Shown: in pieces, positions 18,128-18,901 of the stretch
Layout: each line of letters begins with the position of its first letter
Position numbering within the stretch: position 1 is the stretch's first letter
DNA from: Candidatus Omnitrophota bacterium
Lineage (GTDB): Bacteria > Omnitrophota > Gorgyraeia > Gygaellales > Profunditerraquicolaceae
Reading direction: 5' to 3'
NCBI GenBank assembly: GCA_030650425.1
Contig: JAUSED010000003.1
Coordinates: forward strand, 135,903 to 199,902
DNA length: 64,000 nucleotides
Notes under the pieces: generated by a model
Database searches by the model: none
What the model was told of the DNA's origin: nothing
Seen by the model: the letters and a program-made list of their open reading frames with translations, nothing else
Translations under genes and position numbers: made by a program

Positions 18128-18901
18128 ATGCGAAATATTAAAAGATGGAGCAAAGAAGAGAACCAAAGATTAAAATCCCTTTATTTTAATAAGAAGTTTT
18201 CGATATTAAAAATTTGTAAGATCCTATCCAGAACTCCTGCCTCCGTAAATCAAAAACTATCAAGCAAGTTCAAAAGAAATAGATCTCTCTCTAAAATTAA
18301 AATACCGTGCAAAATTACTCCTGCTTTAGCAAGGGTACATGCGCATGTTTGCGGAGACGGCAATTTATTCCAGAGGAGAGAAAAAGACTCCTACGGCTAT
18401 ATGGCGCTCTATAAACCTAACAGCTATCGCTTTAGGTTTGGCATACAATATACCAACTTTAATCAACGGCTTATCAACGAATTTACGGGGGATTCAAAAT
18501 CGACTTTCGGCTTAAAGCCTTATTTTAGAGATAACCGCGTAACAGTTAAATCAAGGGATGTTTGGCGGTTAATGAAGGAATTAGGAGCCGGTAAATCTAG
18601 AGAGTGGTTTATTTCTCCAAGAATTATGAAAGTAAGTAGAGAAATCAAAAAGAATTGGATCAAAGCGTTTTTCGATGACGAAGCTTGCTTTAATGCTAAT
18701 GGCGCTATCAGGGTTAGATTTGTTAATCGAAAAGGCATAACCCAGCTTAAGAAAATGCTTAACGAATTCGTGCCAAGTCATATTACTCCCAAAAATGATT
18801 ATTACCCAGATCATTCTGTATATTTGAATATAAATAAGAGGGACGCAGGTAAATATTTTTCAAAAATAGGTTCTTTACGCTACCAAAATAAGATTAATTA
18901 G
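18128..18901 (+). CDS. Free-standing LAGLIDADG homing endonuclease (double-motif) with an N-terminal HTH-like extension
   Basis: Two LAGLIDADG-type motifs, ALARVHAHVCGDGNLF and WIKAFFDDEACFNANG. About 28% GC. Lies 25 nt downstream of the tRNA 3' exon. Confidence 0.65.
   Translation: MRNIKRWSKEENQRLKSLYFNKKFSILKICKILSRTPASVNQKLSSKFKRNRSLSKIKIPCKITPALARVHAHVCGDGNLFQRREKDSYGYMALYKPNSYRFRFGIQYTNFNQRLINEFTGDSKSTFGLKPYFRDNRVTVKSRDVWRLMKELGAGKSREWFISPRIMKVSREIKKNWIKAFFDDEACFNANGAIRVRFVNRKGITQLKKMLNEFVPSHITPKNDYYPDHSVYLNINKRDAGKYFSKIGSLRYQNKIN

Follow-up and report, generated by a model that had tools for sequence, protein, structure and literature searches.

A free-standing LAGLIDADG endonuclease gene beside a split tRNA-fMet gene in an Omnitrophota bacterium

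To our knowledge, free-standing endonucleases that mobilise adjacent introns lacking an open reading frame (ORF) occur almost only in phages and belong to families other than LAGLIDADG. In systems of the F-CphI and mobE type, the intron can be mobilised in trans or by co-conversion (PMC3984707, PMC2790892). For bacterial tRNA genes, a 2026 survey sought endonuclease genes only inside introns and concluded that the mobility of these introns is limited; it places the intron of cyanobacterial tRNA-fMet at position 33/34, and the I-Ssp6803I-type intron enzyme has been reported mainly from cyanobacteria (PMC13011429). Here we analyse a free-standing LAGLIDADG endonuclease gene that lies 25 nucleotides (nt) downstream of an intron-containing tRNA-fMet gene in a Candidatus Omnitrophota bacterium (contig JAUSED010000003.1; the 64,000-nt stretch analysed is called the window). 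The gene is mobile, its relatives accompany tRNA-fMet with or without an intron, and it appears to be a selfish element bound to the tRNA-fMet locus, not a companion of the intron. A literature search found no description of a free-standing LAGLIDADG gene beside tRNA-fMet.

The endonuclease gene and the split tRNA-fMet gene

The endonuclease gene, its domains and the preceding tRNA gene are arranged as follows, all on the plus strand. Loci in related genomes carry the prefix L.

18128-18901, plus strand: free-standing LAGLIDADG endonuclease gene, 257 residues plus stop, with an ATG start 25 nt after the tRNA 3' end
18152-18268, plus strand: N-terminal three-helix Myb/SANT-like putative DNA-binding domain, residues 9-47, from weak Pfam and PHROGs matches and AlphaFold2 helices
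18320-18361, plus strand: first LAGLIDADG helix, ending in HVCGDG, with putative catalytic D77 at 18356-18358; helix 65-76 is followed by a strand
18638-18685, plus strand: second LAGLIDADG helix, WIKAFFDDEA, with putative catalytic E185 at 18680-18682; helix 171-185 is followed by a strand
17810-17843, plus strand: 5' exon of tRNA-fMet(CAU), ending in U33 and aligned base for base with the intron-less alleles of L001 and L076
17844-18062, plus strand: ORF-less group I intron of 219 nt at anticodon-loop position 33/34, a full-model match to RF00028
18063-18102, plus strand: 3' exon of tRNA-fMet, 40 nt, whose last base is the discriminator A73
18103-18127, plus strand: AT-rich spacer of 25 nt, the left junction of the inserted cassette

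Taken alone, the window protein gave no LAGLIDADG match in Pfam (E up to 10), NCBIfam, PHROGs or a phmmer search of the PDB. Its sole Pfam match was a weak one to Myb_DNA-bind_6 (E 0.022), and phrog_323 matched the N-terminal Myb-like region (E 1.5e-4). The family is more informative. Of 68 homologs of the window protein, 31 were aligned, and 21 of these 31 matched PF14528 (LAGLIDADG_3), with a best E of 3.4e-13. The profile of the family alignment matched the endonuclease domains of the TliVMA intein, PI-PfuI and PI-PkoII in the PDB (E 8e-7 to 1e-5), and an exhaustive profile search returned 2487 cluster representatives at E up to 1e-3, a small fraction of them full-length. The AlphaFold2 model computed on the family alignment has a mean predicted local distance difference test (pLDDT) score of 91.4. 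With this model, Foldseek retrieved I-DmoI (template modelling score up to 0.76, E ~1e-8), the endonuclease domain of the TliVMA intein, PI-PfuI and I-Tsp061I, with WhiA (8dy9_I, E 4e-5) as a lower-ranked match. The modelled core consists of two alpha-beta-beta-alpha-beta-beta-alpha half-domains, predicted to pack through both LAGLIDADG helices.

The acidic residue that closes each LAGLIDADG motif is conserved, and the two would form a putative metal-binding active site. D77, within the GDG of the first motif, is kept in at least 90% of the 31 aligned sequences, and in the second motif W177, A180, F181, F182, D183, D184 and E185 are invariant. The three helices of the Myb-like bundle (residues 9-21, 26-33 and 37-47) are modelled with pLDDT values of 82-94. 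This domain is found only in the bacterial, tRNA-fMet-linked subfamily, and the archaeal homologs are without it. The ORF is a free-standing gene for a two-motif LAGLIDADG nuclease with an additional N-terminal Myb/SANT-like domain, and the encoded protein is probably an active, monomeric LAGLIDADG homing endonuclease. No match was found by tblastn against 50,697 phage records, and so there is no sign of a phage origin.

The GC content of the ORF is 35.1%, compared with 45.2% for the upstream genes, 40.6% for the downstream ORF and 42.6% for the whole window, so that its AT bias is real but modest. A previous sequence-only reading of this stretch had put the ORF at about 28% GC, which overstates this bias. 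The same reading had correctly described the 257-residue ORF 25 nt after the tRNA gene, the absence of an ORF from the intron, the two motifs (HVCGDG with D77, AFFDDEA with E185; invariant or nearly so among the aligned homologs) and an extra N-terminal helix-turn-helix-like region. Its assignment of the protein to LAGLIDADG is borne out by the family and the structural model, and not by a hidden Markov model (HMM) search with the single protein.

The split tRNA-fMet gene spans 17810-18102 as a whole. The group I intron family RF00028 matches at the tRNA with 76 bits (E 8e-19; Rfam gathering score 50). We fixed the limits of the intron by requiring U as the last base of the 5' exon and G as that of the intron, by the P1 pairing of the Rfam alignment and by alignment with intron-less relatives. 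The splice-site U.G pair lies within P1, G is the last intron base, and the junctions read ggcT/caag...gtaaG/cataacc (slashes mark the splice sites), which places the insertion between U33 and C34. By its covariance-model match, its exon and intron ends and its insertion site, this is a bacterial tRNA-fMet group I intron of the 33/34 type, predicted to be self-splicing. A C1xA72 mismatch is typical of bacterial initiator tRNAs, and this mismatch, the CAU anticodon and a short variable loop identify the window tRNA as initiator tRNA-fMet. ARAGORN missed the split gene with default settings. In its -i mode it labelled the tRNA Leu(CAA), since 'ca' leaves the position of the junction ambiguous, and labelled others Ser or Pro; the short variable loop, the C1xA72 mismatch and alignment with intron-less alleles led us to reject these labels. 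The spacer at 18103-18127 lacks an encoded CCA and a terminator, and no Shine-Dalgarno sequence is obvious in it. The endonuclease-side junction reads TTTTTTATATTT...

Linkage to tRNA-fMet and relation to the intron

Relatives of the gene lie 8-93 nt downstream of tRNA-fMet, on the same strand, in 20 of 21 distinct loci from Omnitrophota, Patescibacteria and Planctomycetota. A genome scan with the family alignment yielded 64 loci, seven of them full-length and bacterial (Omnitrophota, Saccharibacteria, Nealsonbacteria and Planctomycetales); we added loci by looking up identical proteins and by an unbiased scan anchored on the DivIC gene. L157 (37-1416) is the only full-length member without an adjacent tRNA-fMet gene. 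It begins 85 nt after an IS256-family (Transposase_mut) gene on a 2.7-kb contig, and an insertion sequence (IS) element may have inserted there between tRNA and endonuclease gene.

Thirteen of the 20 tRNA-fMet genes that precede an endonuclease gene are interrupted, 11 at position 33/34 and two, in the Patescibacteria loci L003 and L005, by a different intron at 36/37 (CAU/AA). The other seven (L001, L006, L066, L067, L075, L156 and L158) are uninterrupted. The anticodon arm of the intron-less L001, L075 and L067 is identical to the spliced exons of the window and to the empty alleles, and L006 matches L003 in the same way.

The frequency of intron and gene in the wider population was taken from the DivIC-anchored metagenome scan. 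It gave 80 loci, and the upstream order FtsH-enolase-DivIC-tRNA-fMet is conserved in Omnitrophota. The region after the tRNA was classified with ARAGORN, nhmmer (window intron as query), tblastn and the family HMM, and the non-redundant loci whose sequence extends 400 nt or more past the tRNA, 52 in all, were counted:

Intron absent, LAGLIDADG gene absent: 43 of 52 loci
Intron present, LAGLIDADG gene absent: 7 of 52 loci (four introns of ~635 nt with a PD-(D/E)XK ORF, three ORF-less)
Intron absent, LAGLIDADG gene present: 1 of 52 loci (L075)
Intron present, LAGLIDADG gene present: 1 of 52 loci (L081)

All four combinations of intron and endonuclease gene exist. A family-HMM search for diverged endonuclease copies in all 80 DivIC-anchored loci returned only L075 and L081. 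Introns are enriched at endonuclease-bearing loci (12/17 versus 7/50, Fisher p ~3e-5, about 4-5-fold, by statistics that ignore phylogeny), and an interplay between intron and endonuclease gene, probably co-conversion, is likely.

The enrichment also bears on the partnership that the sequence-only reading had proposed. In collaborative homing, the enzyme would cut the intron-less tRNA-fMet gene near 33/34, the ORF-less intron would protect the allele, and both would be copied together. Besides the enrichment, the anatomy of the window fits such a pair, with an ORF-less intron at 17844-18062 and a free-standing endonuclease gene at 18128-18901; two introns, at 33/34 and 36/37, both in the anticodon loop, accompany one endonuclease family; and precedents exist in F-CphI/psbA and mobE/I-TevIII (PMC3984707, PMC2790892). 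A tRNA remnant in L081, described below, begins 3' of the anticodon arm and is compatible with a break in the anticodon region. Yet in seven loci an apparently intact endonuclease gene stands beside an uninterrupted tRNA-fMet gene with an unchanged anticodon arm, and the catalytic residues are kept. The family thus does without the intron at 7 of 20 loci, and this speaks against the insertion site as its target. An enzyme cutting that site would hit the host's own essential gene, and the ratio of non-synonymous to synonymous divergence (dN/dS) of 0.13 between the intron-less L001 and L075 is hard to reconcile with such cutting and with immunity conferred by an intron. The intron without the LAGLIDADG gene is also common, with seven loci in the unbiased sample. 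We therefore consider a collaborative pair unlikely: the gene is linked to tRNA-fMet, and where it occurs without a tRNA intron it still stands beside tRNA-fMet. The comparison of related genomes supports the sequence-only reading insofar as the endonuclease gene varies at this site, and departs from it in that intron and gene are not strictly paired.

The 33/34 intron has, moreover, a dedicated endonuclease of its own in relatives. In L073, the intron is 637 nt long and contains a PF11645 ORF at 2261-2788, a close homolog of I-Ssp6803I (PDB 2OST, E 6.5e-44), so that two distinct endonuclease genes, an intronic PD-(D/E)XK gene and a downstream LAGLIDADG gene, coexist at one tRNA. Introns of ~631-640 nt at 33/34 with an I-Ssp6803I-type PD-(D/E)XK ORF also occur in the Omnitrophota loci L086, L090, L135 and L144.

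This bears as well on the suggestion that the gene is a displaced former intron ORF, or a free-standing gene in the course of capture by the intron, so that its present position would be transitional. Such a history is suggested by L155 (Parcubacteria, GCA_016204105.1, ~1500-1640). This locus has no start codon downstream of the tRNA; all in-frame ATGs fall within the 3' part of the intron, from where the reading frame continues across the 40-nt 3' exon and an encoded CCA into the endonuclease. An IS1595 transposase gene lies upstream. L155 could be an intron-capture intermediate or a pseudogene, but it is a single case. In the window, the ORF begins only after the 40-nt 3' exon and the 25-nt spacer that follow the intron, and at the other loci examined the gene likewise starts beyond the tRNA, with spacers of 11-93 nt. 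Intron-less loci carry the gene too, and ORF-containing versions of the 33/34 intron encode a PD-(D/E)XK enzyme rather than a LAGLIDADG one (PMC13011429 for the cyanobacterial case). Such a history, which the sequence-only reading had raised in its displaced-ORF form, is therefore very improbable.

The archaeal homologs are also often neighbours of tRNA genes. A tRNA gene lies within 300 nt in 9 of 57 archaeal loci when confirmed by Rfam and in 15 by ARAGORN. Short archaeal homologs stand near tRNA genes well above chance (L030, L034, L029, L037, L038, L044, L045, L011 and L058). Two Nitrosopumilus contigs have a tRNA-Met gene 33-34 nt upstream of the homolog (L030, 3894-3968; L034, 474-548), and a Hadesarchaea contig has signal recognition particle RNA and tRNA-Ser genes upstream.

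Insertion site, mobility and history

Alignment of occupied and empty alleles defines the inserted segment. Between L075 (occupied) and L146 (empty), both flanks align, and an 824-nt cassette holding the endonuclease gene only replaces 'CCAATAA'. It is bounded by ...CCCCGCAA (A73) on one side and by the terminator stem GAAACCCGC on the other. A second pair, L002 and L152, places the cassette at the same position. In the third pair, the occupied L001 and the empty L146 are nearly identical in their flanks (94% identity; synonymous divergence, dS, of 0.09 in enolase and 0.04 in DivIC) and differ in a 57-nt promoter segment, the T-arm of the tRNA and the endonuclease gene, which indicates a recent replacement of the whole tRNA cassette. 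The promoter segment is present in L001 and, judged by the tRNA spacing, in L075 and L076. It is absent from L146, where the tRNA starts 3 nt after the DivIC stop codon. Presence or absence at one site with clean junctions, in near-identical strains and with a patchy distribution overall, marks the gene as the mobile element that the sequence-only reading had supposed.

Relative to the same empty allele, the window carries a larger insertion, beyond which homology to the empty-site flank resumes at ~23558-23562:

18103-23557, plus strand: block absent from the L146 empty allele, comprising the endonuclease gene and a 1413-residue ORF

The 1413-residue ORF in this 5.4-kb block (19157-23398, plus strand) has a signal-peptide-like N-terminus and no Pfam domain. 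The gene that follows the endonuclease differs in nearly every related locus (GH94, cellulase, GDSL lipase, SNF2 helicase and LpxD genes), and the tRNA-fMet flank therefore behaves as an insertion hotspot. The tRNA end itself also differs between the two states. Of the 62 empty loci, 43 have an encoded CCA after A73, against 1 of 20 occupied ones; in an earlier set without the last three occupied loci, the occupied count was 0 of 17 (Fisher p ~1e-7).

We favour, at an even chance of being right, the reading that this is a free-standing LAGLIDADG homing endonuclease which targets the tRNA-fMet 3' flank and takes the nearby intron along by co-conversion, a selfish gene whose niche would be the few bases right behind the tRNA. 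Judging from the junctions, its target would be the empty allele, that is, the conserved 3' strand of the tRNA-fMet acceptor stem with the encoded CCA and a short spacer or terminator. The enzyme would cut this allele, repair from an occupied allele would copy the gene in, and the insertion would destroy the target and so confer self-immunity. As the intron site is ~40 bp from the junction, conversion tracts would routinely carry the donor tRNA, with or without its ORF-less intron, and sometimes downstream genes. The intron would hitch-hike by homing in trans without being required. Homing to the 3' flank would explain the linkage to the tRNA, the near-absence of CCA at occupied loci and the exchange of a tRNA cassette between near-identical strains; together with co-conversion, it would explain intron enrichment without an intron requirement. 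Co-conversion is suggested by the differences between L001 and L146 in promoter segment and T-arm and by the intron enrichment at occupied loci.

Several loci carry features that look like scars of past events. In L143 (~2960-2990), only the promoter and nine endonuclease codons (MRWTKDEEY) are left ahead of an unrelated secreted-protein gene, which fits a cycle of gain, decay and loss. In L081 (~3925-3965), what is left of the T-arm and acceptor of an older tRNA-fMet (ggcag-attgat-aaatctgccccccgcaa) overlaps the endonuclease stop codon, and in L067 (~2800-2870) a 21-nt fragment of the tRNA 5' end is duplicated. We also scanned 14 occupied loci, the window included, for an integrase-type att signature, a duplicated tRNA 3' end after the endonuclease gene, and found none. 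Apparent duplicates in Patescibacteria proved to be the next tRNA-Met gene, and only L081, examined separately, has a remnant.

A number of observations weigh against homing to the 3' flank as set out above. The L081 remnant may point to a break located more 5' within the tRNA or to illegitimate recombination. In one sublineage (L067, L081 and L158), a terminator hairpin stands between tRNA and gene, and empty alleles with that hairpin and without CCA also occur (L079 and L125), so that insertion does not in every case fall precisely at A73. Between phyla, conservation is poor in the right half of the proposed target. The window intron is no more similar to the introns of endonuclease-bearing loci (L081) than to those of endonuclease-less loci, and is closest to that of L077, a contig that ends before the endonuclease position. 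The association tests used here take no account of phylogeny. Finally, endonuclease identity correlates with that of the host DivIC (Spearman rho 0.67), and this tracking, together with a low dN/dS, would also be expected if a gene of use to its host had long been retained vertically.

Pairwise dN/dS values of the endonuclease gene are 0.07-0.15, and the gene is under purifying selection, intron-less loci included. In dS, the gene resembles the genes that flank it. This similarity and the correlation with DivIC indicate that the gene is old in these lineages, either passed mostly among relatives or retained vertically with frequent loss. Strong constraint (dN/dS ~0.1) and the tracking of a host marker are also what would be expected of a domesticated protein that has lost homing and serves the host at tRNA-fMet, as a WhiA-like regulator, a maturase or a recombination or defence factor. 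The pairing of a LAGLIDADG core with a helix-turn-helix domain as in WhiA, itself among the structural matches, is in line with this, as are a possible co-transcription with an essential tRNA and the LAGLIDADG maturases known for bacterial group I introns (Thermotoga; PMC3984707). However, only 2 of 52 related loci carry the gene, near-identical strains differ in its presence, a decayed remnant survives in L143, and the genes downstream vary in nearly every locus. Both catalytic acidic residues are kept, unlike in WhiA, and since 7 of 20 loci have no intron at all, the protein cannot be a dedicated maturase. Domestication thus seems to us improbable, more so than a collaborative pair.

Two further features of the window bear on expression:

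17760-17787, plus strand: sigma-70-like promoter TTTGCA-16-TATAAT upstream of the tRNA, with TG before the second hexamer and 10 of 12 consensus matches
19103-19134, plus strand: intrinsic-terminator-like hairpin with T-run, the first terminator after the tRNA promoter

Since a promoter precedes the tRNA, no terminator precedes the ORF and the first hairpin follows it, co-transcription of tRNA and endonuclease gene is plausible in the window lineage, with the gene as a 3' trailer of the tRNA transcript. In other sublineages, a hairpin and a promoter-like stretch (judged by eye) lie between tRNA and ORF.

Some loci show further peculiarities around the tRNA. The T-loop of the window tRNA (18083-18089) reads TCCAAAT, with C in place of the near-universal U55, as in L001 and L076; three Patescibacteria loci, L003, L005 and L006, have G at this position (TGCAAAT, TGCAATT and TGCAACT). 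We asked whether such T-loops mark occupied alleles as resistance mutations; 5 of 20 occupied loci have one, against 1 of 64 empty loci. The majority of occupied loci nevertheless keep the canonical T-loop, and the C55 and G55 variants therefore cannot be a general mechanism of immunity. In many Omnitrophota loci without the endonuclease, a conserved two-hairpin element directly follows tRNA-fMet, and the tRNA 3' end is often repeated at its end (...AAATCNNNNNCCCCGCAACCA). It was seen as ~90-nt inserts in L129, L140, L144 and L148, and also in L087, L090, L092, L098, L127 and L081 and in L102, L118, L135 and L154. The element resembles a small insert or an RNA mimicking the tRNA 3' end, and Rfam holds no family for it. 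Three sub-threshold Rfam matches in the window were set aside: DUF3800-I RNA (19381-19498, minus strand; 28.9 bits, gathering score 44.2) and preQ1-II (17189-17271, plus strand; 25.9 bits, gathering score 47), both inside coding regions and probably due to chance, and an upstream-pseudoknot-domain pseudoknot below its gathering score, treated as chance.

Significance and comparison with known systems

Taken more broadly, and more tentatively than the homing reading itself, the window gene may represent a new clade of Myb-fused, free-standing LAGLIDADG endonucleases specialised for the tRNA-fMet 3' flank in Omnitrophota, Patescibacteria and Planctomycetota, with archaeal cousins often beside other tRNAs; the clade would move tRNA-fMet cassettes together with ORF-less introns and cargo genes. 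If so, ORF-less tRNA introns have an external engine, and the tRNA-fMet flank is a hotspot of gene exchange. The finding qualifies the conclusion that tRNA introns have limited mobility for want of endonuclease genes of their own (PMC13011429). In several uncultivated phyla, it links a LAGLIDADG enzyme that carries an additional, putatively DNA-binding domain to the most conserved of all tRNA genes on cellular chromosomes, and the four combinations of intron and endonuclease provide a natural experiment on how a selfish nuclease and an ORF-less ribozyme intron interact. A monomeric LAGLIDADG enzyme aimed at the tRNA-fMet flank, if this is what the gene encodes, would also be of interest to meganuclease engineering as a new natural specificity.

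The best structural and profile matches, I-DmoI, PI-PfuI and the TliVMA intein endonuclease, share with the window protein the monomeric two-motif LAGLIDADG fold, as modelled here, and the acidic residue closing each motif, at an identity of only ~16-19%. Those enzymes lie inside archaeal rRNA introns or inteins, whereas the window gene is free-standing on a bacterial chromosome and encodes an extra N-terminal Myb-like domain. WhiA likewise combines a LAGLIDADG scaffold with a helix-turn-helix domain. In WhiA, that domain is C-terminal, the catalytic residues are lost and conservation is broad, whereas the domain of the window protein is N-terminal, its putative catalytic residues are kept and its distribution is patchy, which is not the pattern of a WhiA-like regulator. 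I-Ssp6803I shares the host gene and the intron position, 33/34, in cyanobacterial tRNA-fMet, but is an intron-encoded PD-(D/E)XK enzyme of a different fold, and the window intron has no such ORF.

Closest in genetic arrangement are F-CphI of the cyanophage psbA locus and T4 mobE/I-TevIII of nrdB, where a free-standing endonuclease gene also adjoins a host gene with an ORF-less or defunct group I intron. Those systems are phage-borne, use other nuclease families and interrupt protein-coding genes; here the setting is a cellular chromosome, the host is a tRNA gene, the enzyme is LAGLIDADG, and the intron can be dispensed with. T4 SegB is likewise encoded by a free-standing endonuclease gene among tRNA genes and promotes inheritance of the neighbouring tRNA region (PMC13096335). 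Unlike the window protein, SegB is a phage-borne GIY-YIG enzyme and is not specific to initiator tRNA.

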